Notes: generated by a model not told the origin, from the sequence alone. A stretch of DNA of 64,000 nucleotides from an uncultured Armatimonadia bacterium (GCA_964484945.1 CAZAHB010000002.1:16-64015); one strand, 5' to 3'. Positions 26,141 to 59,760 are shown, counted from the first letter of the stretch. Program-made: numbers and translations.

Positions 26141-26254
26141 AAACAACGCATCGAAGGTCAGTCCACATCAATGCGTTGCGATGACAGCATACGAAATCTA
26201 ACGCACGGGCCGACATACACCGCGTCGGCCTTGCGATAATTCGGTTTTCAGGGA

Positions 26255-31550: not shown

Positions 31551-31584
31551 CAGGGGCGGCCGGGGGGCGGGATGTCGTTGCCCA

Positions 31585-31652: not shown

Positions 31653-31740
31653 CCGTCGGCTTCACCCTCCCCACCCTCACCCAACTCGCGCCGCATCTGC
31701 TGTATCTGCGCGAGGAGTTCGACCGCGGCGGCGAGGTTGG

Positions 31741-31889
31741 CGGCTGCCGGGCCTCACCCCCCTCGGTCCCCCCTCTCCCTGCTTCCTGACGCTGCAAACG
31801 GCGCAGCGTCAGGCGGGACGAGGGGGGAGGAACGGCCACTGCGTACTGCAAGAGGGAGGATCGCTATACCGGACTCGTGATACGGAGCC
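31741..31889. repeat. GC-rich palindromic repeat family 1, copy with variant right end (gtgatacggagcc)
   Basis: cggctgccgggcctcacccccc...ctgacgctgcaaacggcgcagcgtcaggcgggacgaggggggaggaacggccactgcgtactgcaagaggga...gtgatacggagcc. It lies in tandem with the copy at 31457, separated by the family-2 repeat. Confidence 0.65.
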
Positions 31890-31968
31890 ACGGAAGGCCC
31901 TCTCCCCCACGTCGCGAATAATCACCCGTCGCCCAAACTTTCGTTCAAACACAAAGGGGATAGTTCTC

Positions 31969-34374: not shown

Positions 34375-34487
34375 GGGGCGGATCGTATGGCGTTGTCGTG
34401 CGGCCCGGGAACGACCGGGCCAGCATCGCGCAGGTAAACGACAACGGCACAGGCTGGCACGGGGGCCAGCCTCTCCAACGACAAAGG

Positions 34488-35795: not shown

Positions 35796-35810
35796 ACGGG
35801 TCCCCGCCCC

Positions 35811-37241: not shown

Positions 37242-37337
37242 GGCAGATGCCTCCCGTCTGGAGTCGTGGTTGGAATGAGGTTCACCCTTCGGGAGGAAAT
37301 CCCCTTTTATCCTGGCGCCCGCTACACATTGCAAGGA

Positions 37338-37528
37338 GCGTATCAGAATCTAATGGGTTGACCCACAACGCGTCGGCAGGCCGGGCCTCACCCCCCTGCG
37401 ATAAACGACATCGCTTCCCCCCCTCTCCCTGGCGATAGACGACATCGCGGGCGGGACGAGGGGGGAGGAACGGTAACTGCGTACCGCAAGAGGGAAGTAT
37501 CGCCATCCATAACTCTTAATACGGACCC
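37338..37528. repeat. GC-rich palindromic repeat family 1, full-length reference copy (about 190 bp)
   Basis: gcgtatcagaatctaatgggttgacccacaacgcgtcggcaggccgggcctcacccccctgcgataaacgacatcgcttccccccctctccctggcgatagacgacatcgcgggcgggacgaggggggaggaacggtaactgcgtaccgcaagagggaagtatcgccatccataactcttaatacggaccc. The ends are imperfect inverted repeats (GCGTATCAGAA / TTAATACGGACCC). Confidence 0.7.
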
Positions 37529-37601
37529 ACATTGCAAGGACCCGCCCCTGCTTCTATCGAACCTCCCATCACCACCGACCAGGCCGCCTGGAGGCTGTCC
37601 C

Positions 37602-39527: not shown

Positions 39528-40043
39528 TGTTCGTGCGCTCATCTGGCACCAGCAGACGCCGGACCGGAAAAAGCAATGGCGGACAGCATAGCAGGATGGA
39601 CAGGATGAACAGGAGAGGACGATGGCGGCCGCATCTGGGCCTGCCGGGCGGGATACGTCTTTGCGGACGGTAAGGGCAGCGGTCTCACGCGCGCGGCGCC
39701 CTCAATCCCGAGGCGGAAGCGGGCTCCAATCGGCGGCAGGTGTGGTCGAACAAATGTTTCACGTGAAACATTGACCGATAACGCATTATACCGTTTTGCC
39801 AGCAAAAGGGCCCCGTGGTCGATAACGGTATTCCCAGGCAGTACGCCATATTCCAGAGATCGGGAGCGAGGCAAGCTCAGACGACGGGGAAAGAGTTTCT
39901 GGTGTCCACGTCCAGCCAGGTCGCCGAAGGTCCATTGGCGTCAGCGGTGTGGGGCCGCCGCAGTCCCGCCACCGGGTGGGAAAGCAGTTGCGCGTGGGCG
40001 GTCGTGCAGGCTCCGCCCAGGGCTCCACGCCGACCCGCAGGCC

Positions 40044-41768: not shown

Positions 41769-41826
41769 GATGCACTCCCGTCAGTCTGAGGACCGTTCGG
41801 TTTCATCGGGCCGGAGGCGCCACTCA

Positions 41827-44742
41827 TCATTTAAAGATGAGGTAGCCGGAGACGATACCGGTGACAGCGCTGAGTATGCGCTCAAAGGTGTCGGGTTTGT
41901 TGACGTCGCGGAAGATGTAGTCCGAGGGCACCAGGATGATGTCTCCGGGCTTGATGTCGGCATCCAGACCCTCGGGAGTAACTTCGCCATTCGCGCGGAT
42001 GACGACCGTGCGCTGCTTCCTGGCATCCGGTGTCAGATCACCGGACTGGTCGATGTAATCGGAGGAATCGAGGCCCTCACGGTATGGAATGGCGCCGGGC
42101 CTGACAACCGCGCCCATGACGGTGACGGTCGTCGGTTTCGTCGGAGCGACGATGACATCGCCCGGTGCAAGCGGGAAGTCGCCCTCTCGCCCGTCAGTGG
42201 CGATGAGTGTCTCACCATCGATCGGCACCGCGCGCGCCCAGCGGTTTTCCCGGAGTCGGCGAGGCGGGATGATCACAGTGTCGGCACCTTTGGACAGTGC
42301 TGCCGAGAGGCCCTGTGAGATCTGCGCGGCGGTACCTGCACTGCGCTGCTCATCGCCCTCGACAGTGCTCGCGGCAAGTTCGCGGTTGAAATGCGCGATC
42401 ATCTGCCGCAGGTCATTTTGCTGTTCGTCGGCGATGATCTCCTCGCGCAGCCGGTAGAGCACAAGGCCGTGGGGGTTCGCGTCTGACAGCAGGCCGCCGG
42501 CGCGCTCGATGAGCTTATACACGGTGTCCGCCCTGTCGGCGGTCCCCATCAGCGCATATGTGCCGGGCCGGGCGACGCGACCGCGGATGGTCACCGAAGG
42601 CGGACTTGCTATCAGATTGCCGGTGCCAAGCACCGCGACGAGATCGTTGTCGCCCAGTACCGGATCCGGCTCGACAGTGAAGGTGTCGCCCTCACGGCGC
42701 AGCATCAGGTAGGTGGGCTCGACTTCGTCCATGGCTCCACCGGGCGTGTACTCAACCTGCTCGCCGGCATTCTCGGTCAGGCCGCCGGCGGCCAGGATCG
42801 CGTCGGACACGCGCATGCTCTCGGGTCGTGGGTACCAGCCGGTTTCGCGGACCATGCCGGTCACGTGGATCTCGCTGACCTCGGCGACCTCGCTGCGGTG
42901 CAGCACCTGCAGGGTGTCGCCGCGCTTGAGGAGCAGGTCGTCCTCCGGATCGCGCTGCAGAGCCGCGGCGAGATCAACCGGGATGAGCTTCTGACGCTGG
43001 TTTTCGCCGATGCGCAGGAGGTTCGCGCGGGTGGTGTAGGCTCCCTCGATGAGGCCGCCGGCCTGCTTGATGAGGTCCGAAACGCGGATGCCCTCCGTCC
43101 AGATGATATCGCCCGGCTGTCGAACCGGGCCCTTAACGGAGACGCGTCGCGGTGCCTCGACATCCTCCTCGGACAACACCACGAGGCGGTCGCCCGGTGA
43201 CAGTGGTTGGTTCTCGGATGGCGTGCCGCGCAGCGCGGCCCGCAGATCCACCGTACTCATCTCGTAATCGAGGTCTTCGTTGAGGCGCCACAGGTAGGCC
43301 TGTTCCATGTGCGCGTCCATCGTGAGGCCCTGGGCGGCGCTGATAAGCCCGCTGATGGTCATGCCCTCGCGGTGTTGATAGCTTCCGGGCCTGCGCACAG
43401 GTCCCATGATGTCGATGACGTTACGGGCCTCTTCCAGCACCGACGGGATGACCACAAGGTCGCCGCCGTGAAGCTGGAATTGCTCATGATCTGCGCTGGA
43501 CAGATCCACGTTCAGCAATTCGCGCTCGCCTTCGGGATCGATGCGCCAGATCCTCACGGTGGGTTTGTAGGCGGTCGCGGCGAGTCCGCCGGCCATCTCG
43601 ATCAGACCGGGCAATGTGGCGCCGGGGGTCATCTCATACCGCGCCGGTCGCTGGATCTGGCCGGTGATGCCGACGGTGGGTCCGGCGGGCCCGACGAAGA
43701 CGGTGTCCTCGGGCGCCAGAGGGAGGTCGCCGGCGGGGTCGCCCTCGAGAAGATAGTCATACAGGTCGATCTGCGTGGGTGGCGTACCGTCGCCGCGGAT
43801 CAACTTGATGTGGCGCAGGCTGCCGATGTCGCTGGGGCCGCCGGCTGCGTAGAGGGCGCTGAAGACGGTGGGGGCACCGCTGAGGCGGTATTTGCCGGGC
43901 CGGGTGACATCGCCGGTGACCCGGACTTCGATCACCCTCGTGCGGGCCATGCCGACCTGCACATTGGCGCGATCGAAGAACTCGGCGAACCTGGCCTTGA
44001 GCATGGTGCGGACCTCAGCCAGCGACTCGCCGGCGACATTCTGTGCGCCGAGCAGGTCGAGGTAGATGTTGCCGTCGGTATCTACGGTCGGCGTGGCGTC
44101 GATGTGTTCGACCGCGTCCGTCCACACGCGGACGGCAAGCTCATCACCGGGGCCGATGATATATCCGGGCGGGACGGCTTCGCCGCGAGTTTTGCGCCCC
44201 TGCCGGCTTTTGGAAGACGGTTGGTCCTCATCTTCCCTGTCTTCCTCGTCTTTGGTGTCTGCCCCCTCGCCGAACACGTTCATGCCGAACCGCGGGAGTT
44301 CGGCAAAACGCTCGCTGGGGGTCCCGCGGGCTGCTCTGGTCTGGTCGGAGGCGTCGCGAGCATCCGTCTGATCGTACGGTGTTTGCCTTCGGAGACGGAC
44401 GGATTCGCTGTCGGAGTAGACGGTCGTTCCCGTGGACGCATCAGCCCCGTACTCATCGCGGGTATGGCCGCTGTCGAAGTGCCACAGTGACGGGTACTCG
44501 GTGTCCCGGCGGTTCAACTGCACCACACGCAGGTCCGAGGTCGGTCCCGGTGTCCGATGGTCTGCAGCCACGAGCGTCAGCGACCGAGCGCCGGGAAGGT
44601 CATCAGCGATGGCAACAGTGCAATCGGGATGGCTCCCGGGAAGCTCCGTCGCCCCAACATGTAATGAGGTGAGCAGAAACGCGATGATGCAGATACTCAG
44701 CAGCGTGGTAACTGTGGTACGTCCCCGTGATCTGTTCGTCAT
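41827..44742 (-). CDS. Polysaccharide export protein (Wza/KpsD-like Poly_export domain plus multiple SLBB repeats)
   Basis: N-terminal TM/signal. The Poly_export motif is VPPGYIIGPGDELAVRVW. It is followed by at least 6 SLBB-like units (recurring PG.Y.......TL..LI..AGGL). 971 aa. Confidence 0.7.
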   Translation of the reverse strand: MTNRSRGRTTVTTLLSICIIAFLLTSLHVGATELPGSHPDCTVAIADDLPGARSLTLVAADHRTPGPTSDLRVVQLNRRDTEYPSLWHFDSGHTRDEYGADASTGTTVYSDSESVRLRRQTPYDQTDARDASDQTRAARGTPSERFAELPRFGMNVFGEGADTKDEEDREDEDQPSSKSRQGRKTRGEAVPPGYIIGPGDELAVRVWTDAVEHIDATPTVDTDGNIYLDLLGAQNVAGESLAEVRTMLKARFAEFFDRANVQVGMARTRVIEVRVTGDVTRPGKYRLSGAPTVFSALYAAGGPSDIGSLRHIKLIRGDGTPPTQIDLYDYLLEGDPAGDLPLAPEDTVFVGPAGPTVGITGQIQRPARYEMTPGATLPGLIEMAGGLAATAYKPTVRIWRIDPEGERELLNVDLSSADHEQFQLHGGDLVVIPSVLEEARNVIDIMGPVRRPGSYQHREGMTISGLISAAQGLTMDAHMEQAYLWRLNEDLDYEMSTVDLRAALRGTPSENQPLSPGDRLVVLSEEDVEAPRRVSVKGPVRQPGDIIWTEGIRVSDLIKQAGGLIEGAYTTRANLLRIGENQRQKLIPVDLAAALQRDPEDDLLLKRGDTLQVLHRSEVAEVSEIHVTGMVRETGWYPRPESMRVSDAILAAGGLTENAGEQVEYTPGGAMDEVEPTYLMLRREGDTFTVEPDPVLGDNDLVAVLGTGNLIASPPSVTIRGRVARPGTYALMGTADRADTVYKLIERAGGLLSDANPHGLVLYRLREEIIADEQQNDLRQMIAHFNRELAASTVEGDEQRSAGTAAQISQGLSAALSKGADTVIIPPRRLRENRWARAVPIDGETLIATDGREGDFPLAPGDVIVAPTKPTTVTVMGAVVRPGAIPYREGLDSSDYIDQSGDLTPDARKQRTVVIRANGEVTPEGLDADIKPGDIILVPSDYIFRDVNKPDTFERILSAVTGIVSGYLIFK

Positions 44743-46564: not shown

Positions 46565-46769
46565 GGTTTGTATCAAAAGTCTAATGATTGTCTTCTGCCG
46601 TGCTGCGGCTGCCGGGCCTCACCCCCCTGCGATAAACGACATCGCTTTCCCCCCTCTCCCTTGTCCCGCCGAAACGGCAGGCGGGACTGGCGGGACGAGG
46701 GGGGAGGAACGACAACTGCGTCCCTGCAACAGGGAATTATCGCTATCCTTAACTCTTGATACGGACCCC
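46565..46769. repeat. GC-rich palindromic repeat family 1, full-length copy with cccgccgaaacggcaggcggg inner hairpin
   Basis: gggtttgtatcaaaagtctaatg...gctgccgggcctcacccccctgcgataaacgacatcgc...cccgccgaaacggcaggcggg...gggacgaggggggaggaacgacaactgcgtccctgcaacagggaattatcgctatccttaactcttgatacggaccc. Confidence 0.7.
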
Positions 46770-46817
46770 GGGGATGGAGGCGGCATTGGGGCGCGAGTGG
46801 AAGAATGGAGTGCACGA

Positions 46818-49088
46818 GTGAAGACGGGTGGATCGGATGCGGGGTTGGTGAGTCGAGTGAAGATCGACAGAATTCTCAGTCTGGACGGGGCGGGGGCATA
46901 CCCGGGGCGCGGTACGATTGACATGGTGATGTACCTGGGGTGCTTCCGAGGGTCGGTCGTGCGGCTGTGGGTCTTTACGGATGCCGAAAGTCCGGTAGTG
47001 CGTATCGATGAGCACCAGTTCGAGGTGGTGGGAGACGCGGGAGAGCGCGAAGGCGGGATGCGGTGGCTGGATCTGGGCGTGACGGATGGACTGGATGCGC
47101 GGTTCGGACAGTTGCGGATCGAAGGCATGACGATGCGCCAGGCGCAGAATGCGAGGCTGTTGATCACGCGGGATGTGGACCTGGAGGTCGAGGGATCGCT
47201 GGGGGATGCCGAGGAGGCTGTGTTCGGGATACGTCGGTGCAACGCCGGGCATACGACCCTCAGTCCGCAGCGCGTGGAGGTGGGGGAGAGCGCGTCATTT
47301 GAGGGCACATACACTGCAGGCGCTGAGGGACTTCCCGCTGGCGCGCGAGTTCGTTTCGCGGTGCCCCGGGCCTTCTCCCGGCCGCAGATGGATGACGCGG
47401 AGACGCCCGGATACACCTCCGTGCAGGGCGTCGGGCCGGGCGGGGAAGAGGTAGACGTGCGGGTGGAGTCGGCCGATCTCTCCGAGGATGGGCACGAGGA
47501 AGTTGACATCATCTGCCTGCTGCCGGAGGGTATAGGAGCCGGTGGGCGCGTGATTGTGCGGTATGAGACGGCGGAGATGTACATCTTCCCGTGGCAGCGC
47601 GATGCGGTTGAGCGGCCGATGTGGTTTGCGCACCTGGCACCGCTGGCGGCGGCCGTGGCGGTGGATGAGCGGAGGCGCTGGGTGGAGCTGTTGCCGGAAA
47701 ACAGTCACGTGTTCGAGACGGTGCACGGGCCGGCCGAGCGCCTGCACCTGATGCTGCCGGGGCAGGTGCATGCGGGCGAGGAGGTCTCGCTGCAGGGGAT
47801 CTTCACCGACCGGTTCCGCAATGTGCCGGACGCGCGCGGGATCCCGTCGCGCGTGCGACTTACGATCGAGGACGAAGCGGGGGAGAGGGGCATGGGAACA
47901 CCGCGCGGGAGGTTCACTGCCCCGCATCGCTTCACGATGCCCCTGGGGCGAATGGACCCGGGTCTGTATCGGATCCGCGCATGGGACGCCGACACCGGTG
48001 ATCTGCTCGCCCGGAGCAATCCGATGCGGGTGCTGAATGAGGATGATGAGCGACTGAATGTGTACTGGGGGGAGATCCACGGGCACACGGAGATGAGCGA
48101 TGGCAGCGGCGGGTTCGAGGCGATGTTCCGCCACGCCCGTGACGAGGGCGCCCAGGATTTCGCTGCAGCCGCCGATCACGCCTGCTACTTCACCGACAAC
48201 GAGTGGGAGTGGATGCAGGATGTGGTGAACTCATTCAACGAGCGCGGGACGTTCGTGGCCTTACTGGGCTATGAGTGGGCCGGCAAGCAGGGCCATCGGT
48301 GTATTTATGCGCGGGGTCGAAGCATGCGGTTGTTTCGGGGGATGTGCGAGGGAGAGGACACGCTGGACGTGGTCTACGATCACTTCCACGACGATGATAC
48401 TGTTGTGGCGGGGCCGCACCATACGGGCGCGAACGGCCGGATGCAGGTCCACGATCCGACGATTGAGCGGTTCATCGAGATCTACTCCATGTGGGGCGCG
48501 AGTGACCGTATCGGCTCACCGAAGGCGCCGTTGTTTCCGGGGAAGCACCCGTTGCCGGCGCACCAGTGGCTGAATGAGGGCGCGAAACTTGGCTTCACGG
48601 GTGGGGGAGACTGCCATGAGGGGAAGAGCGGATGGTCTCCGGAGGATCCTGACGGGCAGGGCACGGCGCTTCACGGCTTTGCGCGGCAGTTGCGCTACCG
48701 CTGCGGGATGACCGCCGCACTGATGCCACAGTTGCGCCGGCGGCATCTGATCGAGGCCCTGCGGGAGCGGAAGACGTGGGCCACGACGGGAGCGCGGATT
48801 CTGCTGGAGTTCGAGGCCTCCGGCGTGCAGATGGGTGATGAGGGGGCAGCGGATACGATCGAGGTGAACGCGACGGTTCACGGCGCCGAAGCCCTGCGGC
48901 GGCTGGAGATTATCCGCGACGGCGAGGTGGTCTGGACCGAGGAGATCGAGGGGCTGGACGCGGAGCTTCAGTGGACCGACCCGGAGCCGGTGGGGGAGAG
49001 GACGACCTGGCTTTACCTGCACGTGATCCAGCGAGACGGCGAGGAGGCGTGGTCCTCGCCGATCTGGTTGACCGCCGGTGACCAGTGA
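46818..49088 (+). CDS. DUF3604-family protein (PHP-like metal-dependent phosphoesterase domain)
   Basis: NVYWGEIHGHTEMSDGSG is the PHP/DUF3604 His-cluster motif. The start is uncertain: GTG at 46818 or ATG at 46923. The ORF-track start at 46584 lies inside a repeat element and is rejected. Confidence 0.5.
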   Translation: MKTGGSDAGLVSRVKIDRILSLDGAGAYPGRGTIDMVMYLGCFRGSVVRLWVFTDAESPVVRIDEHQFEVVGDAGEREGGMRWLDLGVTDGLDARFGQLRIEGMTMRQAQNARLLITRDVDLEVEGSLGDAEEAVFGIRRCNAGHTTLSPQRVEVGESASFEGTYTAGAEGLPAGARVRFAVPRAFSRPQMDDAETPGYTSVQGVGPGGEEVDVRVESADLSEDGHEEVDIICLLPEGIGAGGRVIVRYETAEMYIFPWQRDAVERPMWFAHLAPLAAAVAVDERRRWVELLPENSHVFETVHGPAERLHLMLPGQVHAGEEVSLQGIFTDRFRNVPDARGIPSRVRLTIEDEAGERGMGTPRGRFTAPHRFTMPLGRMDPGLYRIRAWDADTGDLLARSNPMRVLNEDDERLNVYWGEIHGHTEMSDGSGGFEAMFRHARDEGAQDFAAAADHACYFTDNEWEWMQDVVNSFNERGTFVALLGYEWAGKQGHRCIYARGRSMRLFRGMCEGEDTLDVVYDHFHDDDTVVAGPHHTGANGRMQVHDPTIERFIEIYSMWGASDRIGSPKAPLFPGKHPLPAHQWLNEGAKLGFTGGGDCHEGKSGWSPEDPDGQGTALHGFARQLRYRCGMTAALMPQLRRRHLIEALRERKTWATTGARILLEFEASGVQMGDEGAADTIEVNATVHGAEALRRLEIIRDGEVVWTEEIEGLDAELQWTDPEPVGERTTWLYLHVIQRDGEEAWSSPIWLTAGDQ

Positions 49089-49263
49089 ACCTTCGCCTGG
49101 GCTCGTGCTTGACCGATCACCGTGTGGCATGTTGTATTGGTCCCAGAGCAGGGCGCCCGCACGGCGGCGCAGTGTGGAACAAGGGGCCGGTCACGGCGCG
49201 TTAGGACCGGTGAACGGTGTCTTCGACATCGGAGTGTGAGGTTCGGAGCACGCGGATAATGAG

Positions 49264-49923
49264 GTGCAATGGATGAGCACAAAGTGGAAGACCGTGCTGA
49301 TTATCGTGTCTCTTCTGGCGATCATCGGCCTTTTCAACAAGTATGTTCTGAAGATGGATCCCTCGCAGCTTGCGGCGAGGGGTGTAGGGAAGGACCCGCA
49401 CGCACAACAGCATGAGGAGGAGGATCCGGGGGAGCAGGCCAGGGCGATAGCCGAGCAGATGGAAAAGCAGAAACAGATCGTCAAGCCCATCGGGCCTGAG
49501 GATGCCGAGGTGACGATCACGGTCCTGTGGCGGGACATGAGTGATCTGGAGAAAGCTCTTCGGCCGATGATGGAACATGTTGCATCCACGTATGAGGGAC
49601 ATGTGCGCGTGGAGTTTCCCGATCCGAAATCTGATGAGTACAGGCGGCTGGTCACGGACGTGACGAAGGGGGTTGGCTCCGGATTGGTGATCAACGGGGA
49701 GATGATCAAGGAGGTCCCCGACGCGCCGCTGGGGATGATTGCGTTCAGCGGCTCCCCGACCTTTGAGGAGTGGGGTGTGGATGAGGTGCGGCTGGCGGTG
49801 GAGCACGAGCTGATGGAAGCCGGCGTGGAGTTCACACCGAAGCAAGAGCACGACCATAGTGCTCCCTCCGGCCCCGCTCAGTCGCCACGCGCGGGGGATT
49901 CCCACGCCGGGCATGGCCACTGA
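49264..49923 (+). CDS. Membrane-anchored hypothetical protein with His-rich C-terminus
   Basis: N-terminal TM helix KTVLIIVSLLAIIGLF. The C-terminal tail is HDHSAPSGPAQSPRAGDSHAGHGH. Confidence 0.4.
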   Translation: MQWMSTKWKTVLIIVSLLAIIGLFNKYVLKMDPSQLAARGVGKDPHAQQHEEEDPGEQARAIAEQMEKQKQIVKPIGPEDAEVTITVLWRDMSDLEKALRPMMEHVASTYEGHVRVEFPDPKSDEYRRLVTDVTKGVGSGLVINGEMIKEVPDAPLGMIAFSGSPTFEEWGVDEVRLAVEHELMEAGVEFTPKQEHDHSAPSGPAQSPRAGDSHAGHGH

Positions 49924-50066
49924 TCGGCGAGGGCCACCATCCATTCGCACGACAATGACGCGACTTTCAGCGGGCGAGGGTCCGGCGGGCCTTCGCCCGG
50001 CGCGAGCCACAAGGGCCGCATTCTGTCCGATCAAACGTAGAGACAGCTTATCAGGGAGAGATTATC

Positions 50067-51941
50067 GTGCGTAAGTCAGCAGGGCTGGTCGCAGCAGCAG
50101 CACTTCTCGGGATTGTGTTCGCCGCGAGCGCATGCAGCGCGGAGTTGACGCGTCACGACCTGGGGCGAACGGTCAAGTTCAAGGTCCTGGTGGACAAGGT
50201 CATGCAGCCGGAAGCGGGATGGCACACCGAACAGTGGATGGTACAGGAGGCGGCCGCAGCCGGCTTTAATGTCTTCTGCCCGCGGCGCGCCCGGGACCTG
50301 GAGGAAGTTCGCAAGGTGACGCAATGGTGTGAACAGGAGGGTATGCTGCACATCCCGTGGATGCGCGGGACGCTGAATGCCTCGCTCGATGACGAGGCGG
50401 CCGATGGCAAACGACTGGTCTGGGCGTCGGGGCTGGAAAGCTCGCTGTGGAGCCCCAACTCGGATGAGTTCTGGGAGTGGACCAACGAGAAGATTCTGTC
50501 CTACGCGAAGATCAGCGCGGAGATGCCGACACTTTTCGGCGTGTTCCTCGATTACGAGAACTACGCAGAGGGCTCGAACTGCTACCGGCTTTCGTATGAT
50601 GATATCATCATGGGCAAGTTCGCCGAGGCGCAGGGCATCGAGCTTCCCGAACTTGCGCTGGATGAGCGCGCGCAGTGGCTGAAGGATCAGGGCCTGCACG
50701 ATGCGTTCGAGGCCTTCCAGGTCGCGCACTGGCGCGAGCGCTGCCGGACACTGCGGGAGGCCGTTGACGAGATCGACCCGGAGTTCATGTTCATGATCTA
50801 CCCCGCGCCGGGGACGAAGTTCATGACAGAGGCATGCTACCCGGAGTGGGCCACCGAGCAGGCGCCGCTGATTCTGGCGGATGCAAGTACGTATGGCCGC
50901 GCAGCGGTCCTGCCGCATAAGCAGGCGCTGAGGGCAAATCGCAACAAGCTCGTGGAGCGGCAGGAGTCTGCGATGGAGATGGGGGAGAACCTGCTTTACA
51001 CCGGCGGGATCGACCCTGTGGTCAAGGGCGCGGACCCGGAGTTTTCGGGCCGCAACGCGGCGATGATCATGCACGTCACCGACGGCTACTGGATCTTCTA
51101 CGAGGGCCCCGAATATGAGGGCACGCACCCGGACTACTTCAAGTGGTTCGCGCGGGCGCATGAGGCGGCGGAGGACGAGAACTGGGACTGGGCGTGGGAG
51201 GAGCGCCAGACGCCCGACACCTACGGACTGGACGATTTGCAGATCGAGCACCCGGACAGGAAACAGCTTATCGTCTATGGCGCGAAGAAGCCGTTCCTGG
51301 CGACACTGCGCGCGAATGATGAGTACGAGGTCCACGAGATGGCCGGCGCGTCGCTGAGCTACTTCGAGGCGGCCGATGTGGTGATCCTGCAGAACTTCAA
51401 CGAGTCGCTCGATCGCGATGCACCGTTTGTGCAGATGCTGCAGGCTTACGTGGATCAGGGCGGCGGGCTGATGCTGGCGCACGATACCGCGTGGTTCATG
51501 GCGAGTCCCTTCCCGGAGATCGCGAAACGGGGCTACCCGACGCAGAAGGTCGAGGCCGAGCGGCACGTGGCGGAGGTGGACCTGGTCATCGGGGATGTGC
51601 ACCATCCGGCACTGCGCGGGGTCGAGGCCGGGACGACCTTCTATCCGGAGTTCCGCGACCACATGATCTTCCGCCCCGGTGAGTACGGCACAACGCTGGT
51701 GCGGAACGTGTTCGATGACCCGGTGTACGTTGCCGGCGAGGCGGGGCAGGGGCGCGTGATCTTCGCGGGCTCCTACTTCGGCTACAGCAACCAGCTTGAA
51801 GGCGCCGAACGCGAACTTCTGTGGGCGAATCTCGACTGGCTGGCCGGTGAGGGGCCGAGCTACGGGCGGCCAATCATGATGGACCGGGATGAGGGCCCGC
51901 ACCCGGCGGTGAAGTGGAGCGATCGGCCGGGATTCGAATAG
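50067..51941 (+). CDS. Secreted hypothetical protein with C-terminal ThuA/class-I glutamine amidotransferase-like domain
   Basis: Signal peptide MRKSAGLVAAAALLGIVFAASA. The C-terminal ADVVILQNFNESLD...AYVDQGGGLMLAHDTAWF resembles ThuA-like domains. The N-terminal half is GH-like. Confidence 0.45.
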   Translation: MRKSAGLVAAAALLGIVFAASACSAELTRHDLGRTVKFKVLVDKVMQPEAGWHTEQWMVQEAAAAGFNVFCPRRARDLEEVRKVTQWCEQEGMLHIPWMRGTLNASLDDEAADGKRLVWASGLESSLWSPNSDEFWEWTNEKILSYAKISAEMPTLFGVFLDYENYAEGSNCYRLSYDDIIMGKFAEAQGIELPELALDERAQWLKDQGLHDAFEAFQVAHWRERCRTLREAVDEIDPEFMFMIYPAPGTKFMTEACYPEWATEQAPLILADASTYGRAAVLPHKQALRANRNKLVERQESAMEMGENLLYTGGIDPVVKGADPEFSGRNAAMIMHVTDGYWIFYEGPEYEGTHPDYFKWFARAHEAAEDENWDWAWEERQTPDTYGLDDLQIEHPDRKQLIVYGAKKPFLATLRANDEYEVHEMAGASLSYFEAADVVILQNFNESLDRDAPFVQMLQAYVDQGGGLMLAHDTAWFMASPFPEIAKRGYPTQKVEAERHVAEVDLVIGDVHHPALRGVEAGTTFYPEFRDHMIFRPGEYGTTLVRNVFDDPVYVAGEAGQGRVIFAGSYFGYSNQLEGAERELLWANLDWLAGEGPSYGRPIMMDRDEGPHPAVKWSDRPGFE

Positions 51942-52581: not shown

Positions 52582-53946
52582 TTAACTCATCGCCATCCCC
52601 GCGACCTCGAGTATGACCGCTTCCGCGATGGCCTTCGTGGTCTCGCAGGACGTGCGGGCAGTCGCGTCTCCGCTGGCAAGGAAATCCGCGCCGATACAGC
52701 CGCTGCACAGAGGGGCCGCCCAGCACTGCGAACACTCAGAATGCGCGTCCCTGTCACACGCGTTGACCACCGGCGCGACCTCCGACAGGCGCTCGTCGGT
52801 GATGCGACCGTCCTCGGTGAACCGCGCCACGCGGAAGTCGTCCTCGCCCGCGAACATGAAGCACGGGTACAGGTATCCCTCCGGGTCGATCGCCATCGTG
52901 CCTGAGCCGGCGGGGCAGTAGGCCGCGATCGGCTCACGGGTGCGCAGGGCGTCCATCACCCGCCAGGAGAAGCTGTTCGCGCGGGCGCGGCCCTCGATGA
53001 GCTGCTGCACCGAGTACCGCGCGGCCTCCGCGTACACCTCGGCCTTCACCTCGTCGGGGAGGTAGAGCGCGCTGCCCTCGGGCGCGGATACGTGGGCGAT
53101 GTGCGTGACGCCGCGGTCGTAGCGCTCGGAGAAGAAGTCGATGAGGTCCACCACCGAGATGCCCTGCTCGAGGTGCTCGGGGGTGTACGTGCACTCGAAG
53201 TCCACCGCGATGTCGCCTGCGTCGAGGCAGCGGCGGGCGAACTCGTCGGCGGCCTCGAAGCTACCCTCCCCGCGCAGCGCGTCATGCACCTGCGGCGGGC
53301 CGTCGATGCTGATCGTGGCTGAGATGTCGTAGCGCCGCATCATCTCCATGGGGCCCTCGCCGCCGAGCACTCCGTTCGTGACCATCGCGAAGCGCGGAAG
53401 TTCGTCGATGTGCCCCTCATCGCGGAGGGCCCTGCAGTACTCGCACACCTGGAACATCAGCTTCGGATTCAGGAGCGGCTCGCCGCCGAAGAACTGGATC
53501 GTGCGCACGCCGCCGAAGTTGCCCACCGCCCAGTTGATCGCGGTCATGGCGATCTCGCGCGGCATGTCATCGCGGGGGCGGCCGTAGCAGCCACCGTCGG
53601 CGTAGCAGTACACGCAGCGGAGGTTGCAGTCGTGGGTGACGTGCAGCACCAGGCGGTTGAGGCGCCCGTCCTCGCAATCGCAGTTGTCGCGCGAGGCTGC
53701 GCCGGGGTCCTCGGGAAGGTCTGCAAGCTGCGAGACAGCTTCTTCCGGACACTGCTCCGCGCAGGAAAGGTCCTCGCACGCGTCAGGATCGGCCTCAGTG
53801 ATTTGCGGCAGGTCAGGGAGGGGGTTGCCCGCCTGCAGTGCCGCCAGCGTCTCCTCGTGCAATCCGAGCGCGAGCATAGTATCTGGCAGGAAGACCGCGT
53901 GGCGGTCGCCGTCCGATATGAGGTGTGCGGATGGGCGCGTGTTCAA
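52582..53946 (-). CDS. Radical SAM/SPASM-domain protein (peptide/protein-modifying maturase type) with about 100-aa Cys-containing N-terminal extension
   Basis: The radical SAM motif is HDCNLRCVYCYADGG (CxxxCxxC). The C-terminal SPASM is CPAGSGTMAIDPEGYLYPC...CSQCWAAPLCSGCIG. The N-terminal extension carries CEDLSCAEQCPEE...DNCDCEDG. It lies directly downstream of two CXXX-repeat Tat proteins. Confidence 0.85.
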   Translation of the reverse strand: MNTRPSAHLISDGDRHAVFLPDTMLALGLHEETLAALQAGNPLPDLPQITEADPDACEDLSCAEQCPEEAVSQLADLPEDPGAASRDNCDCEDGRLNRLVLHVTHDCNLRCVYCYADGGCYGRPRDDMPREIAMTAINWAVGNFGGVRTIQFFGGEPLLNPKLMFQVCEYCRALRDEGHIDELPRFAMVTNGVLGGEGPMEMMRRYDISATISIDGPPQVHDALRGEGSFEAADEFARRCLDAGDIAVDFECTYTPEHLEQGISVVDLIDFFSERYDRGVTHIAHVSAPEGSALYLPDEVKAEVYAEAARYSVQQLIEGRARANSFSWRVMDALRTREPIAAYCPAGSGTMAIDPEGYLYPCFMFAGEDDFRVARFTEDGRITDERLSEVAPVVNACDRDAHSECSQCWAAPLCSGCIGADFLASGDATARTSCETTKAIAEAVILEVAGMAMS

Positions 53947-54119
53947 GGCTTCCGGAGCGCTCCTTCGTCATGCCCATAACGGATGGAACGGGAGTGGGCA
54001 ATCGGCAATTGGGAATTACGGCAAATGCATACGACACGGCGACGGGCAGGATGCCCGTCCTGCAAACGGCTGCATCGGAAGCAACAGCGGCAACGAAATG
54101 CCGGCGATCGCCGGGCTCT

Positions 54120-54926
54120 TCAGCCCTCGCGCTCGAAGGGACCGCCGAGATCGGTGTCAAAAGCCTTGTCCGCGTTGCGCATCGCGGCGGAGAGGCGCTT
54201 CATGGAGAGGCCCTTGAATTTGATGCCCTTCGTGGCCACGCCCTCGCGGTCGAAGCTGGTCTGCTTCAGGCCGGTGGCAGGACAGCCGCCGCCGCAGATG
54301 ATCCCCGCGGCATCGACGCCCGGGCAGCCCTGACCGCAATCGCCGCCACAGGCGAAGCCTCCCGTGATCGCGGACATGCAGCCACTGCCGCAGCCCGTTC
54401 CACAGCCGTTGCCACAGCCGTTGCCAAGGGCGCGGGGGCCGCCACCCTGATCGGGCGTCACGCCCTGCTCGCGGATGGCGTCCATCCCCGCGCCGAGGGT
54501 GCCGAAGAGCCTCGCGAGATTATTGCCGAGATTCGGCGCCTCCTTGAAGCGCTGGCGGAGCTGGAGGATGATCACACCGGCCAGCCAGTCGGCGTGGTTC
54601 TGGTCGGCGAATACCTCCGCCCACGATTCCGCGGGTGCGTTGGTGTCGGTGTATGCGGCGATCTGTTCATAAGCTTCCCTGTATTCCTCCACGCCGGCGA
54701 CGTTCGCGCTTTCGGGAAGCTCCATCGGGATGTTCTCGACTGTCGGTTTCATCCGCTCCTGTGGTCCGGTGCGGATATCGCGCTGCGCGTCCGCAACGGA
54801 AGTCAGTCCGGCAATGGCGGCGAGTGCGCCACCGCCGACCATCCCGGCCTGTTTGAGGAACTCGCGTCGGTCCGTCGTCTCGTCAGGTTCGTCAGTTGTC
54901 TCGTCTGTGCGCACGTCTTCCTCCAC
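54120..54926 (-). CDS. Tat-signal exported protein with C-terminal CXXX-repeat cysteine cluster (candidate radical-SAM substrate), paralogue B
   Basis: Twin-arginine motif TDRREFLKQAGMVGGGALAAIAGLTSVADA. The Cys cluster is GNGCGNGCGTGCGSGCMSAITGGFACGGDCGQGCPGVDAAGIICGGGCPATG, with Cys at every 4th position within three blocks. Confidence 0.7.
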   Translation of the reverse strand: MEEDVRTDETTDEPDETTDRREFLKQAGMVGGGALAAIAGLTSVADAQRDIRTGPQERMKPTVENIPMELPESANVAGVEEYREAYEQIAAYTDTNAPAESWAEVFADQNHADWLAGVIILQLRQRFKEAPNLGNNLARLFGTLGAGMDAIREQGVTPDQGGGPRALGNGCGNGCGTGCGSGCMSAITGGFACGGDCGQGCPGVDAAGIICGGGCPATGLKQTSFDREGVATKGIKFKGLSMKRLSAAMRNADKAFDTDLGGPFEREG

Positions 54927-54997
54927 GGTTCTTCCTCCTCAGGTGCGCTGATGCGGCAAAATGACGACGAACGACCTGGTGAGGGGCGGTAGCAATC

Positions 54998-55840
54998 TCA
55001 GCGACCGAACACCTCGCTATACGCACGGTCTGCGTTGCGCATGGCCGCGCTCGTAGCCCGCATGTCGAGACCTTTGAGTCTTACGTCCTTAAGCGCAATT
55101 CCTTCGCGGTCGAAGCTTACCTGTTTGAGGCCGGTGGCATCGCATCCTCCACCGCACATCAGGCCCGCGGCCTCGGCGCCGTTGCAGCCCTGGCCGCAAC
55201 CATCGCCGCAGATGAAGCCGCTTGCGACCGCGGACATGCAGCCTGTTCCACAGCCATTGCCACAGCCGGTGCCGCAACCGTTGCCGAGGGCCCGAACGTC
55301 CGCTATGAATCCGCCGCGACTTTCGCGCGAACCGGTGCCCGTCGCATGAGGGCCGCCACCGGCGCCCGCCCCCGTGCTGACTCGGTCACCCGGCATGACG
55401 CTCTCCATACCCGCCGCGAGTGTGCTGAAGAGCACGACGAGGTTTCTGCCGACATTCGGGGATTCTTTGAAGCGCTGACGCATCTCCAGGATCGCCACTC
55501 CGCCGACACGGTCCGGGGGGGACATGTTGGCCATGGTCTCAGCCCACGACGGTGCCGGGCCCTGTGTGTCTGTGTACTCCTTGATTCTCGCGAACGCCTT
55601 CTTGAATTCTTCCACACTTGCTACGTCCGGCGCCTTGATGAAGTTCTCCGGGATGCGTGGCTTCATGCGGCTCTCCGGCAGCGTCCGGATGTCGCCCTGT
55701 GCGTCCGCCGCTGAAGCCAGTCCGGCGAGTGTCGCAAGGGCTCCTCCGCCGACCATCCCGGCCTGTTTGAGAAACTCGCGTCGGTCCGTCTGATCGTGGG
55801 TTTCGTCAGTGGCTTCTTCTTCGTGCGTATCCCTGCCCAT
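54998..55840 (-). CDS. Tat-signal exported protein with C-terminal CXXX-repeat cysteine cluster, paralogue A
   Basis: Tat motif TDRREFLKQAGMVGGGALATLAGLASAADA. The Cys cluster is GNGCGTGCGNGCGTGCMSAVASGFICGDGCGQGCNGAEAAGLMCGGGCDATG. It is colinear with paralogue B and has an extra Gly/Ser-rich insertion. Confidence 0.7.
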   Translation of the reverse strand: MGRDTHEEEATDETHDQTDRREFLKQAGMVGGGALATLAGLASAADAQGDIRTLPESRMKPRIPENFIKAPDVASVEEFKKAFARIKEYTDTQGPAPSWAETMANMSPPDRVGGVAILEMRQRFKESPNVGRNLVVLFSTLAAGMESVMPGDRVSTGAGAGGGPHATGTGSRESRGGFIADVRALGNGCGTGCGNGCGTGCMSAVASGFICGDGCGQGCNGAEAAGLMCGGGCDATGLKQVSFDREGIALKDVRLKGLDMRATSAAMRNADRAYSEVFGR

Positions 55841-56085: not shown

Positions 56086-56691
56086 ATGAGGCGACGAGGG
56101 TTTACCCTAATCGAATTGCTGGTTGTGATTGCGATTATCGCGATCCTGGCCGCAATCCTGTTCCCGGTTTTCGCCCGGGCGCGGGAGAAGGCCCGACAAT
56201 CGAGTTGTTCGAGTAACGTCAAGCAGATTTGTCTGGCGGTGCACATGTACGTCCAGGACTACGATGAGAGGATGCCCATGGCGGTTGCCGGTGTTCCGCC
56301 GGCGATCTGGACATTCGAGGAGCTGCTCAATCCGTACATCAAGAACGAGCAGCTCTGGGACTGCCCCAGCAAGCCGCGGTCGGTAGACCTGTCGCAGCTT
56401 GGAAAGCCTAATGTGAGCTACATGGTCGATGTCGGTACACCATTCCCGTCAGGATCGAGCACAGGTCGCCTGTTCGGCGCACCGGCGGCAGGGACGTCCT
56501 CATGCAGCCTGGCCCAGATCGAGCAGCCGGCCACTACTCCGATCATGTGTGATGCAGAGGGCTCTGTAGATGCCTCCTTCACAATCGACATCAGCGAGGC
56601 TCCGCGGCATAATGACGGCTGCAACTACGGCTTTGCGGACGGTCACGTAAAGTGGGATCGACCCGAGAAGATTGATATCAGACTGGAGTAG
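56086..56691 (+). CDS. Prepilin-type N-terminal cleavage/methylation domain protein (DUF1559)
   Basis: N-terminus [38 protein letters not shown]. The C-terminal [13 protein letters not shown] is H-X9-DG. Confidence 0.85.
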
Positions 56692-56730
56692 CAGGTCGGG
56701 AAGGGGACCCTGAAAAGGCAACGACGACGG

Positions 56731-56839
56731 CGCCCCTCCCCTGCGATAGACGACATCGCTGGCGGGACGAGGGGGGAGGAACGGCAACTGCGTACTGCAA
56801 GAGGGAATTATCGCTACTATTGACTTTTGATACGGACCC
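56731..56839. repeat. GC-rich palindromic repeat family 1, 5'-truncated copy
   Basis: cgcccctcccctgcgatagacgacatcgctggcgggacgaggggggaggaacggcaactgcgtactgcaagagggaattatcgctactattgacttttgatacggaccc. Confidence 0.65.
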
Positions 56840-56919
56840 GCTGTGAAGGTCCATGCGAGGTCTCCGGCGCAAGAAGCTACTGCGCTGGAGACCTTTTCTA
56901 TTGAGAGGGGCCTGCCCCG

Positions 56920-59760
56920 ATGACCCACCGGAGAGCCGCCTGTGTCGCCGTGCTCGCGCTTGCAGCGACTTTGTGCGCCGCACAGCAGCCCCCTGAAGAG
57001 GGCTTACTCTTCCATCTGTCCTTCGACAACCGCGACGTGGCGGCCGAGTACGCTCAGGGCAGCGCGCAGTCTACGACCTTCACCGAGAGCCTCGAATTAC
57101 GTGGCGTCGAAGGCATCCACGAGTACGGCTTTCAGATCGCCGAGGACGAGCGGCTGGACTACGACCTCGCCAGTAACTTCCACCTGCCGAAAGGCACTGC
57201 TTCGATGTGGATCAAGCCCGTCAACTGGAAGGGCCGTAACGACCGTTTCGAGGTCTTTCTCGACATTCGCTCCCCGCAGCACCTGTGGCGGATCTACAAG
57301 TACTCCCAGCCCAATCACCTTTTCGCCTACCTCAAGCCGGGCGGCGGCGAAGCCGCCATCGCGCGCACCTCCGCGGAGGACTGGCGGCCCGGCGACTGGC
57401 ATCACATCGCGGTTTCGTGGACCGGGGAGTTCGTGCGCCTGTACCTCGACGGACAGCTTAAGCACGAGAAGACCATCGAGCCTCCGATGGACCTTCCAAA
57501 CGTGAACGAGGGCTCGATCATTGTCACGCCGCCGAAGCTGTGGAAGAAAGGCTTCGACCCGAGTGACCGGACCGTGGTCGATGAGGTGAAGATCTGGGAC
57601 CGGGTGCTTGATGACGGCGAGATCCGCCGCATCTTCCTCACGCACGCCCCCGAGGAGACGGACGTCGAGCCGCTGGATGTGCAGTGGGAGATCGACCCGC
57701 CCGAGGGCGCGGTGCTGCTGGACGTGGACGCCTTCCGACTGATGGGCGATGGGGGAGAGCTTTCAATCAGGGCACGTCTCACGGACGCCACCGGCGCGCA
57801 GGTCGCCGAACAGACCGCGCGGACCGAGGACGGGGCCGCGAGCTTCGCGCTGGAGTACGGCGAGCTTGCGCCGGGCGAGTACACGCTGACCGTCGCTGCG
57901 CTGGGCGCCGATGGCGCGGAGAAGGCTTCGATCACCGACAGATTCGGGCGTCCGGAGGTGACCTGGGAGGATGCGCCGACCTTCGAGGGCGTGGTCCCGG
58001 AGCCATGGACGCCGATTGAGCGTGCGGGGAATACACTGCAGGTGTGGGGGAGAGGGCATCAGTTCGGCGAGGGACCGCTGCCGGTCGAAGTGACCTCGCA
58101 GGACCATGAGATTCTCACCGGCCCCATCCAGTTGCTCGTCAACTCCGAAGACCCCGCGTGGAGTGGGGGAGAGGTTACCGCCGAGGCTCCGGATGCGCTC
58201 GAGCGCGAGGGCGCGGGGAGCGCCGGGGACGTCGCGGTGGACTGGCACACGCGCATGGAGTTCGACGGGATGCTCCGCTGCGACCTGACAGTGCGGCCGG
58301 TGGGGGAGAGGGCGGAGGTGCAGTCGCTGGCGCTGGAGCTTCCGGTGACCCGCCAGTGCGGAGAATACGTGCTGGCTCCGGTAATGGAGGAGTGGGACGA
58401 GGACACGATCGCGATGGACTGGCGGGACATGATCTGGTTGACAGGCCACGAGGCGGGCATCTGCTGGTTCGCCGAAAGTGACGCGAACTGGGTGGCGCCT
58501 GAAGGCGCGACGCCGATCGTGGTTGAGCGCGGAGATGATACGACCACGCTCACACTGACCATGATCGGTGAGCCGGTGACGATCGACGGGCCCGTCAGGT
58601 ACACGTTCGGCCTGCAGGCAACGCCGGTGCGGCCGCTCCCGGAAGACTGGCGGAACCTGAATCTGGGCAATGCCAATCAGGTTGAGGGAAACCACGCAAT
58701 GCTCGTGGCGCAGGGCGGCGGCTGCTTCAAGCGCAACGCATACCTGGTGCCCGCCGAACAGGTGGATATGGACGCAGTGCACGAGCGCTGGTCAAAGTGG
58801 GGGAGAGTGCTGCCCTACTCGACCCCGACCTTCCTGGCTGACCACACTGCGCTGTGGGATTTCTACCAGCGCGCCTGGCGGAATTCCGAGCGCCACACGT
58901 ACGTGGGATACAGGGCACACGATGGCACCGAATACGCGCTCCAGGCGACCTGCCCGCGCAGCGACTTCTCGGAGGTGATGGTGCACTGGGTGGATGAGCT
59001 TCTGGCGGACTACCCGTGGATCGGCGGGATCTACTACGACTGCTGCTCGGCCACGGAATGCCGCAACACCGAGCATGGGTGCGGGGGCGTGGACGCCTTC
59101 GGAAAGTCCTATGCGAGCCACCCGATTTTCGCGCTGCGTGATGTGCTGCGGCGGGTGCTGACGATCGCGCACTCGCACGGGGACATTGTCATGAACCACG
59201 CGCACAGCCGGTTCTATCCACCAATTCACGGCTTCAGCGACTACTGGTTCCCCGGCGAGCAGTACACCACGCGGCTGGGTGAGGACCTGTGGTACTACAC
59301 CGACCGGATTCCGCCGGAGGTATGGCAGATCGAACTGAACTCACAGGTGCGCGGAGTGGGGATCAGCTTCCTGCCCGAATTCGGGCGCGGGACCGATGAC
59401 AAATACCGGTGGGAGGATGTGGCGCCGAGTCGGGCGCTGCTGGCGGCCTGCATGGTCCACGACGTGCCCTGCAGCGGTCACTGGGTGCACCCTGAGGCGA
59501 TCGAGGAAGTGTGGGAGATCTACGATCACTACTGGCTCTCGGATGCCGAATTCTCCGGCTACTGGGAGGCGGACTGCCCGGTGAGCGTGACACCGCCGTT
59601 GAAGGCCAGTGTGTACGTGACCGATGACATGATGGTGGTTGTGGTCGCGAACCTCACGCCCGAACCGGCGGCGGGGACGCTGCGCGTGGGCGGTGAGGAA
59701 CGGCCGATGAGCGTGGGGGCGCGAGATTATGTGGTCGCCGAAGTGCAAAGAGAAGAGTAA
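56920..59760 (+). CDS. Secreted LamG/concanavalin-A-like lectin domain protein with large C-terminal glycoside-hydrolase-like region
   Basis: Signal peptide MTHRRAACVAVLALAATLCAAQ. The N-terminal LamG-like block is WIKPVNW...WHHIAVSWTGEFVRLYLDG. The C-terminal half, 946 aa in total, contains a Cys/His-rich segment YYDCCSATECRNTEHGCGG. Confidence 0.5.
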   Translation: MTHRRAACVAVLALAATLCAAQQPPEEGLLFHLSFDNRDVAAEYAQGSAQSTTFTESLELRGVEGIHEYGFQIAEDERLDYDLASNFHLPKGTASMWIKPVNWKGRNDRFEVFLDIRSPQHLWRIYKYSQPNHLFAYLKPGGGEAAIARTSAEDWRPGDWHHIAVSWTGEFVRLYLDGQLKHEKTIEPPMDLPNVNEGSIIVTPPKLWKKGFDPSDRTVVDEVKIWDRVLDDGEIRRIFLTHAPEETDVEPLDVQWEIDPPEGAVLLDVDAFRLMGDGGELSIRARLTDATGAQVAEQTARTEDGAASFALEYGELAPGEYTLTVAALGADGAEKASITDRFGRPEVTWEDAPTFEGVVPEPWTPIERAGNTLQVWGRGHQFGEGPLPVEVTSQDHEILTGPIQLLVNSEDPAWSGGEVTAEAPDALEREGAGSAGDVAVDWHTRMEFDGMLRCDLTVRPVGERAEVQSLALELPVTRQCGEYVLAPVMEEWDEDTIAMDWRDMIWLTGHEAGICWFAESDANWVAPEGATPIVVERGDDTTTLTLTMIGEPVTIDGPVRYTFGLQATPVRPLPEDWRNLNLGNANQVEGNHAMLVAQGGGCFKRNAYLVPAEQVDMDAVHERWSKWGRVLPYSTPTFLADHTALWDFYQRAWRNSERHTYVGYRAHDGTEYALQATCPRSDFSEVMVHWVDELLADYPWIGGIYYDCCSATECRNTEHGCGGVDAFGKSYASHPIFALRDVLRRVLTIAHSHGDIVMNHAHSRFYPPIHGFSDYWFPGEQYTTRLGEDLWYYTDRIPPEVWQIELNSQVRGVGISFLPEFGRGTDDKYRWEDVAPSRALLAACMVHDVPCSGHWVHPEAIEEVWEIYDHYWLSDAEFSGYWEADCPVSVTPPLKASVYVTDDMMVVVVANLTPEPAAGTLRVGGEERPMSVGARDYVVAEVQREE

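Follow-up and report, generated by a model that had tools for sequence, protein, structure and literature searches.

A radical SAM/SPASM enzyme encoded beside twin-arginine signal proteins with cysteine ladders in an uncultured Armatimonadia bacterium: a candidate system for protein maturation before export

A 64,000-nt stretch of DNA from an uncultured Armatimonadia bacterium (GCA_964484945.1 CAZAHB010000002.1:16-64015; the whole stretch is called the window below) encodes two paralogous proteins, A and B, each with a twin-arginine translocation (Tat) signal and a C-terminal ladder of cysteines, followed on the same strand by a radical S-adenosylmethionine enzyme with a SPASM domain (rSAM). 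Our preferred hypothesis, held with somewhat better than even confidence, is that these genes constitute a two-component maturation system, in which the rSAM would introduce thioether staples into the CGxx repeats of A and B in the cytoplasm and the folded products would then be exported by the Tat pathway. This hypothesis is built on the gene anatomy, the Tat motif, the class and architecture of the enzyme and a family-wide genetic linkage, all of which were observed.

Linkage of enzyme and substrate genes

The proposal that A and B are substrates of the adjoining rSAM, already made in an earlier note on this DNA, found strong comparative support in the genetic linkage, in the varied neighbourhoods in which it persists and in the clustering of the enzymes by substrate type; the modification itself is inferred. 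An rSAM of the same clade adjoins the substrate gene or genes in every Tat-type locus examined where the contig reaches far enough, and the two kinds of gene were met side by side in about 20 unrelated metagenome loci, which answers the objection, anticipated in the same note, that homologues of the Tat proteins might never be found beside rSAM genes. Both gene orders were seen, substrate-then-rSAM and rSAM-then-substrates, with one to three tandem substrate copies; no degenerate second substrate copy was found in loci with a single copy (L001), in which the gap of 660 nt was inspected for one.

Among the linked loci, those of Armatimonadota (L001-3, L005, L006/7, L009, L098 and L099) share a wider synteny with the window, and others keep the pair among unrelated neighbours (L010; L014; L011, with FAD oxidoreductases; the contig of P0049, which has CsgG and Zip genes). 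Homology to the family of the window was found by hhalign (Prob 96.4%, E 1.3e-9) for a deep branch whose rSAM gene stands ahead of one to three tandem substrate genes (L012/13, L015 on a 4.1-Mb contig, L096/97, L100/101, L103-105, L110 and L115). In a marine metagenome-assembled genome (MAG), a divergent Cys-cluster protein with a Tat motif, an rSAM/SPASM gene and tatC are consecutive on one strand (L016, 3668-7040), tatC standing directly after the rSAM gene (TIGR00945, 199 bits against a cutoff of 132.7). A rough neighbour-joining tree arranges the rSAMs in groups that follow substrate type, and, as far as can be judged from the sequences, the clades of enzyme and substrate co-diverge. Since no other gene is consistently associated with the pair, a system of two components is suggested. 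A profile scan of genome contigs with the rSAM clade alignment gave, among the matches listed, distant rSAMs only (≤33% identity). Scans of genome and metagenome contigs with the Tat-protein alignment (A1), for which the search patterns were generic, gave no locus among the 600 stretches considered.

The synteny block that surrounds the system in Armatimonadota (46584-51941 and 56086-59760 in the window) comprises five genes (Table 1), which are probably unrelated to the system because distant loci do not retain them. In two loci, transposase genes (DDE_Tnp_1, DDE_5) lie at most 1-2 kb from the system (L006, 903-2057; L114, 3529-4655), a hint of occasional mobility of the gene pair.

The locus and the Tat proteins

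Open reading frames were found for all three of the minus-strand genes that the earlier note had placed here, in the order A, B, rSAM (Table 1). A and B are separated by 71 nt and B and the rSAM gene by 173 nt, and an identical Shine-Dalgarno context, CTGAGGAGGAAGA, lies upstream of A and B; co-transcription of the three genes is plausible. The longer gap contains a weak terminator-like hairpin. The spacer was rejected as a structured attenuator, its overall fold being no better than that of shuffled sequence (z -0.85), and an attenuator role of the hairpin is speculative. Long antisense open reading frames without homologues occur opposite A, B and the rSAM gene, e.g., one of 355 aa on the plus strand at 53925-54992; they are an expected artefact, as the sequence is 63-67% GC.

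The public gene call for the rSAM (P0030, 431 aa) begins at Met24, 23 aa too late, and skips positions 53878-53946 of the window. The true start is taken to be the TTG at 53946, because the conserved N-terminal motif HLISDGDRHAVF and the Met of homologues align there. Errors in start calls were also noticed in relatives: the 146-aa call of L012 is really 194 aa, and the substrate of L011 had been called without a Tat signal, its Tat motif being recovered once the start codon was corrected.

The sequence features ascribed to A and B in the earlier note were borne out. The two proteins (280 and 268 aa) are 55% identical (E 8e-83) and both present an acidic n-region followed by TDRREFLKQAGMVGGGALA and an ADA/Q cleavage motif. 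Their scores with the Tat-signal model TIGR01409 (20.2 bits for A, 18.2 for B) exceed the cutoff of 16.7, and the S/T-R-R-x-F-L-K motif, a moderately hydrophobic h-region and an AxA site, the features expected of Tat substrates, are present in each. All nine Cys of either protein lie within CGxxC chains of 4+3+2, in A at residues 189, 193, 197, 201 / 211, 215, 219 / 229, 233. The 12-nt tandem repeat proposed for the DNA of the cluster is real but imperfect: in either gene Tandem Repeats Finder picked it up in the first block, with 3.4 copies (86% match) and 3.9 copies (77% match). In the AlphaFold2 model of A the Cys cluster has a predicted local distance difference test score (pLDDT) of 27-44, so that the ladder is predicted to be disordered between two well-predicted segments, as would be expected for a region that needs cross-links for order.

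Apart from the Tat signal, nothing was detected in A and B in Pfam and NCBIfam scans at E values up to 1, and neither a structural match nor a known fold was found for the Tat proteins. A sulfatase-type C/SxPxR motif considered in A (SPPDR) was rejected, as it is not conserved in B or in the homologues; no sulfatase domain is present in A or B.

Size and conservation of the Tat-protein family

The family is small. A search of 5.8 billion clustered proteins returned 28 homologues; an exhaustive hidden Markov model scan of 1.84 billion proteins gave 43 representatives with E<1e-3, and a broader family profile gave 45. No more than about 45-70 relatives were thus found in billions of proteins; the named members are from Armatimonadota MAGs. 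In an alignment of 32 sequences (A4), which covers all Tat clades down to ~22% identity, the invariant columns are the RR pair, two GxxCGxxC motifs and a single Asp, D244 of A, which is the sole family-invariant residue other than Arg, Gly or Cys. The RR pair is also invariant in alignment A1. Of 68 proteins, 63 have it; among the five without it, two proved to be truncated gene calls and the remaining three have the appearance of such calls.

Across 68 distinct family members, 509 of the 562 Cys (91%) fall in CxxxC motifs and Gly follows the first Cys in 335 of 335 such motifs, evidencing that the CGxxC pattern is not due to chance; position +2 is rich in N/G/S/D/T and position +3 in G/N/D. 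Homologues have between two pairs and eight or more CGxx units, and tandem paralogues are unlike in this number. In the closest clade the most conserved segment is the signal region (residues 18-47, majority fraction 0.82), ahead of the Cys ladder (0.73) and the helical domain (0.54), and this unusually high conservation of a signal peptide hints at an additional binding partner. Gene-1 copies are 63-68% alike across genomes and 50-60% alike to their own gene-2 copy, which indicates that the A/B duplication is old.

The radical SAM/SPASM enzyme

The rSAM exceeds the gathering score of PF04055 Radical_SAM clearly (67.2 against 29.5 bits) and that of PF13186 SPASM marginally (21.6 against 21.5 bits), and the CNLRCVYC motif and seven conserved Cys of the SPASM domain are present, in agreement with the class proposed in the earlier note. 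These seven Cys are invariant in the clade alignment (A2), and C405, C408, C414 and C434 are nearly invariant in a wider alignment of 68 rSAM sequences (A3). The best solved relative in sequence is CteB, the SCIFF maturase (PDB 5WGG), with which the similarity is colinear over residues 95-442 of the rSAM and 95-443 of CteB (whole-sequence E 8e-32). The model of the rSAM superposes on both CteB and anSME, with 375 residues aligned to CteB vs 335 to anSME.

The N-terminal extension of about 100 aa, thought unusual in the earlier note, turned out to be the normal front end of CteB-type maturases: judged from the model, this ~95-aa region corresponds to their usual domain resembling a RiPP (peptide made on the ribosome and then modified post-translationally) recognition element (RRE) and is predicted to have a binding role. 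The domain is modelled with a pLDDT of 82-94 (E8-11, E16-20, E25-29, H31-38, H46-50, H54-57), and its motif HLISDGxxHAVFxPxT is kept through the clade, including truncated genes at contig ends. The Cys motifs noted in the extension (CEDLSCAEQC and DNCDCEDG; C-x2-4-C ... C-x-C) do exist. They are situated in a linker and are confined to the six closest sequences, which are at least 74% identical, and they could form an extra metal or cluster site specific to this subclade.

Comparison with NCBIfam placed the PapB model first (NF047865; 148 bits, cutoff 340), followed by the nif11-type maturase (142, cutoff 519), the SCIFF maturase (TIGR03974; 135.6, cutoff 425), QhpD (TIGR03906; 107.6, cutoff 453), the CXXX-repeat maturase (TIGR04115; 79.5, cutoff 350) and anSME (TIGR03942; 48.9, cutoff 349). 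The enzyme is thus no member of TIGR04115, the membership that the earlier note had suggested checking, nor is it an anSME, an assignment which that note had named among the outcomes that would refute its proposal. By these scores the rSAM belongs to no curated family and appears closest to the Cys thioether formers, the class of PapB, CteB and QhpD (PMC8326336; PMC10114670).

In CteB the RRE domain binds the leader peptide, and its auxiliary cluster has an open iron site that binds a substrate Cys (PMC8326336). By analogy with CteB, the presence of seven SPASM Cys for two [4Fe-4S] clusters suggests that the rSAM also leaves one iron site open.

Proposed mechanism

In the proposed mechanism the precursors A and B would consist of the twin-arginine signal, a small helical domain, the Gly/Cys-rich CGxx ladder and, at the C terminus, an xDxxG/helix segment folded back against the helical domain. 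The CteB-like rSAM/SPASM enzyme would dock on the precursor in the cytoplasm via its RRE-like N-terminal domain, a Cys of the substrate would occupy the iron site left open in auxiliary cluster I and the 5'-deoxyadenosyl radical would take a hydrogen from the acceptor carbon. Candidate acceptors are the C-alpha of the Gly after each Cys, which would give a C-alpha sactionine (in sactionines, Gly is among the known acceptors; PMC8326336), the N/S/D/T-rich residue at +2 and the invariant Asp, the last by C-beta chemistry of the PapB/QhpD type. The Cys-S-C thioether would then be closed and the process repeated along the ladder. Once cross-linked, the protein could no longer be threaded through Sec and would be exported folded via Tat, with cleavage of the signal at ADA/Q. 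The mature periplasmic product may be a rigid stapled loop or a metal-binding module.

That A and B are stapled substrates is suggested by the fact that the nearest relatives of the enzyme make Cys thioethers, including on a protein subunit (QhpD), by the tandem multi-copy genes, an arrangement typical of RiPP precursors, and by the variable number of repeats. Export of the product by Tat is suggested by the invariance of the Tat motif and by the one locus in which tatC is adjacent; in the window no tatC was found by tblastn, which is uninformative for a 64-kb fragment.

Several points weigh against this hypothesis. The modification of A and B, its thioether nature, the acceptor carbons and the Tat dependence of export are inferred, and the chemistry of the enzyme is extrapolated from families to which it is 24-30% identical, as no curated cutoff is reached. 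The family core of exactly four Cys in two GxxCGxxC motifs would also fit a site for Fe-S or for a tetrahedral metal, and export by Tat is classically explained by a metal cofactor. Apart from the Gly at +1, no obvious acceptor is conserved at a fixed distance from each Cys, and the low confidence of AlphaFold2 in the ladder may merely reflect a shallow alignment. The existence of signal-less relatives (see below) indicates that the chemistry does not of itself require export by Tat, and the h-region of some distant members might anchor the protein in the membrane and not be part of a cleaved signal.

Alternative explanations

According to one alternative, which we consider unlikely, the ladder is a metal or Fe-S module (a Cys4 core plus extra thiolates) loaded in the cytoplasm, the rSAM building or inserting the cofactor or modifying the protein slightly, and the Cys staying as free ligands. 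The invariant four-Cys core is consistent with it, as are the many members that hold merely 4-5 Cys and the Gly-rich loops, whose flexibility would allow them to fold around a metal. Proteins exported by Tat typically carry cofactors, and the family profile gave weak matches in the PDB to NosZ, AioB, FdhA and the hydrogenase small subunit, solely in their Tat signal peptides. A fixed cofactor site, however, would not be expected to vary from 2 to 8 or more CGxx units, or to differ between tandem paralogues. A known metal-binding domain, the contrary outcome contemplated in the earlier note, was not encountered, as the Cys clusters of A and B matched no metallothionein, ferredoxin or Csp/DUF326 model, nor any other Pfam or NCBIfam domain. 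Moreover, the enzyme resembles a peptide maturase of the CteB type with an RRE-like domain and not a cofactor-assembly rSAM, and several tandem genes beside one rSAM follow the pattern of RiPP precursors.

A second alternative, rather improbable in our judgement, retains A and B as substrates of the rSAM and replaces the thioether by another chemistry, such as conversion of Cys to a formylglycine-like residue, C-C or C-O cross-links or another modification at the C-alpha of Gly. SPASM enzymes catalyse many reactions (PMC10114670), the rSAM scores below every curated cutoff and the strict occurrence of Gly at +1 suggests that the Gly itself may be the target. Against this, the five best-scoring characterised families with Cys-rich substrates are all thioether makers, the ladder lacks the conserved aromatic or Lys residues used by enzymes that form C-C or C-O cross-links, and a conserved sulfatase-type motif is absent.

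The closest Armatimonadota loci keep the whole neighbourhood (DUF1559, 624-aa protein, DUF3604) along with the pair, as would be expected if the adjacency were inherited synteny without a functional link and the rSAM acted elsewhere, but this explanation is effectively refuted by the comparative data, given that the pair persists when all other neighbours change and the gene order inverts, and that the clades of enzyme and substrate co-diverge.

Signal-less relatives

When metagenomes were scanned with the SPASM portion of the rSAM, related rSAMs were found, 35-39% identical in that portion, which adjoin proteins without a signal (L107, L109, L111, L112, L114, L116, L117, L119, L120, L157, L173, L177 and L023). 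These proteins, of 65-130 aa overall, carry the same module of CGxxC and xDxxG and are of two kinds, one of about 125 aa with the pattern GFGCGGGC-x5-GFGCGGGC ... YAIDVLG and another of 65-110 aa, e.g., CGNGCGSGCGSGC ... LIFDRFGH. Comparison of their profiles with the core module of the Tat family gave probabilities of 96.6% and 95%, values that composition may inflate. Neither these proteins nor their rSAMs reach any NCBIfam cutoff, and genes for a dedicated exporter or protease were not found beside the two loci examined for them (L114 and L120).

From these sequences, the CGxxC ladder together with xDxxG appears to be the conserved module, and the twin-arginine signal and the helical domain would mark the branch of the window. 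The existence of the short signal-less relatives suggests a larger undescribed family, of which the Tat form is a single branch. The architecture claimed as novel in the earlier note is therefore not an isolated invention.

Comparison with known maturation systems

The CteB/SCIFF system shares with the window the N-terminal RRE-like domain, the colinear core and the seven SPASM Cys. CteB is 24% identical to the rSAM, which lies below the cutoff of that family, and SCIFF substrates are signal-less peptides of ~45 aa with six Cys, whereas those of the present family are proteins of 240-280 aa which combine a helical domain and a CGxx ladder with a Tat signal. The direct analogy for the ladder is PapB/freyrasin, the top-scoring curated family, whose cutoff is nevertheless missed: PapB works along a repeated CX3D motif, with one thioether per repeat. 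The repeat described here has Cys and not Asp at i+4, no acidic residue occurs at this position, and the precursor is large and predicted to be exported.

QhpC, the gamma subunit of quinohemoprotein amine dehydrogenase, works in the periplasm, has a short leader and a dedicated exporter/protease and is not known to have a Tat signal. QhpD is the rSAM/SPASM enzyme that introduces intramolecular Cys thioethers into this subunit, a protein and not a RiPP natural product (PMC10114670; PMC8326336). The rSAM of the window falls below the QhpD cutoff and its substrate family is unrelated; neither qhpA nor qhpB was seen among the neighbours examined (DUF1559, the 624-aa secreted protein and DUF3604).

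The CXXX-repeat maturases (TIGR04115 with TIGR04114) likewise combine a CXXX-periodic target with an rSAM/SPASM enzyme. Together with the rSAM of the window, distant rSAMs of the clade (L015, L016 and L023, with 62, 79 and 62 bits) stay below the TIGR04115 cutoff, no neighbour tested matches TIGR04114, and among NCBIfam models the substrates match that of the Tat signal alone. anSME differs in lacking an RRE domain and in a cutoff that the rSAM misses by far. In comparison with the sactipeptides and ranthipeptides, precursors as large as these (240-280 aa), which have both a signal and a folded domain, go beyond the usual definition of a RiPP. By analogy, the system would function like those of CteB, PapB and QhpD while being a member of none, every tested cutoff having been missed.

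No description of such a system was found in a full-text search of the literature on Tat and rSAM/SPASM, CXXX repeats and Armatimonadota. Almost all known rSAM/SPASM maturases act on short leader-core peptides; QhpD and anSME, with proteins as substrates, are the exceptions, and many uncharacterised families of rSAM/SPASM enzymes with precursors exist. As the maturation of Cys-rich substrates by rSAM/SPASM enzymes is already known, the new element is the architecture of the substrate, a protein of 200-280 aa predicted to be exported by Tat.

Other features of the window

The coordinates of the system and of other genes in the window are given in Table 1. The cumulative GC skew has its minimum near 26 kb (~24000-27000), where gene orientation flips: minus-strand genes precede the minimum and plus-strand genes follow it, from an HTH_36 protein at 26633-27697 onwards. 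This flip could be a replication-related switch or just a bias in the transcribed strand. Polysaccharide-related genes extend across 31417-44742. No match was obtained in the window with Rfam, PADLOC gave just a generic similarity to the viperin core, and no plasmid DNA matching the window was found.

Table 1. Positions of the genes and sequence features of the maturation system and of other genes in the window.
Feature	Position	Strand	Description
Gene A	54998..55840	-	280 aa, ATG start; putative substrate 1; identical to P0001
Tat signal of A	55700..55840	-	Residues 1-47: acidic n-region, TDRREFLK, Gly/Ala-rich h-region, ADA/Q; RR codons 55778-55783
Cys cluster of A	55142..55285	-	Residues 186-233: CGTGCGNGCGTGC ... 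CGDGCGQGC ... CGGGC
12-nt imperfect tandem repeat of A	55239-55285	-	Tandem Repeats Finder
Asp244 of A (FDREG)	55109..55111	-	Invariant in alignment A4; candidate thioether acceptor
Gene B	54120..54926	-	268 aa, GTG start; paralogue of A, putative substrate 2
Signal of B	54786-54926	-	RR codons 54864-54869
Cys cluster of B	54282-54425	-	
Asp226 of B	54249-54251	-	
B-rSAM spacer	53947..54119	-	173 nt; GC hairpin, terminator-like, at 54114-54101
Radical SAM/SPASM maturase gene	52582..53946	-	454 aa, TTG start
RRE-like N-terminal domain	53776..53946	-	Residues 1-57; conserved HLISDGxxHAVFxPxT
Linker	53662..53775	-	Residues 57-91, between RRE-like domain and rSAM core; C57, C62, C66, C89, C91; pLDDT 39-56
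CX3CX2C radical SAM cluster motif	53605..53628	-	CNLRCVYC (C107, C111, C114); invariant in A2 and A3
SPASM domain	52645..52917	-	C344, C362, C405, C408, C414, C417, C434
DUF1559/N-methyl pseudopilin-like gene	56086-56691		Divergently transcribed; synteny block
GH123_N/Laminin_G_3 protein	56920-59760		Synteny block
Signal-bearing (secreted) protein	50067-51941		624 aa; synteny block
219-aa protein	49264-49923		Synteny block
DUF3604 protein	46584-49088		Synteny block
Hybrid sensor kinase	15628-19371	+	1247 aa; several PAS (up to four matched stretches per PAS model), GAF, HisKA/HATPase, receiver
GH20b-domain protein	31417-34374		Polysaccharide-related
Heparinase II/III-like protein	40044-41768		Polysaccharide-related
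Poly_export protein	41827-44742		Six SLBB repeats; polysaccharide-related

Concluding remarks

The broader proposal that follows is more tentative, its chances being in our estimation slightly short of even: A, B and their relatives would represent an undescribed class of full-length Tat-exported proteins in which the CGxx ladder is a stack of thioether staples and Tat is obligatory since the product cannot unfold, in which the conserved signal and the helical region may double as the element recognized by the RRE-like domain, and in which the cross-link has a new topology, possibly from Cys to the C-alpha of Gly.

Neither Pfam nor NCBIfam has an entry for the family, and none turned up in the searchable literature; it thus constitutes an annotation gap in Armatimonadota and in other environmental lineages. 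It would offer a simple two-gene system for the study of substrate recognition and of processivity repeat by repeat, and its strict C-G-x-x unit with an invariant Gly at +1 may reveal a new acceptor rule. If the proposed mechanism is true, radical thioether stapling would extend to secreted proteins, the family would be a protein-scale counterpart of the ranthipeptides and sactipeptides, and these bacteria would provide a natural case in which cross-linking in the cytoplasm dictates the pathway of export.

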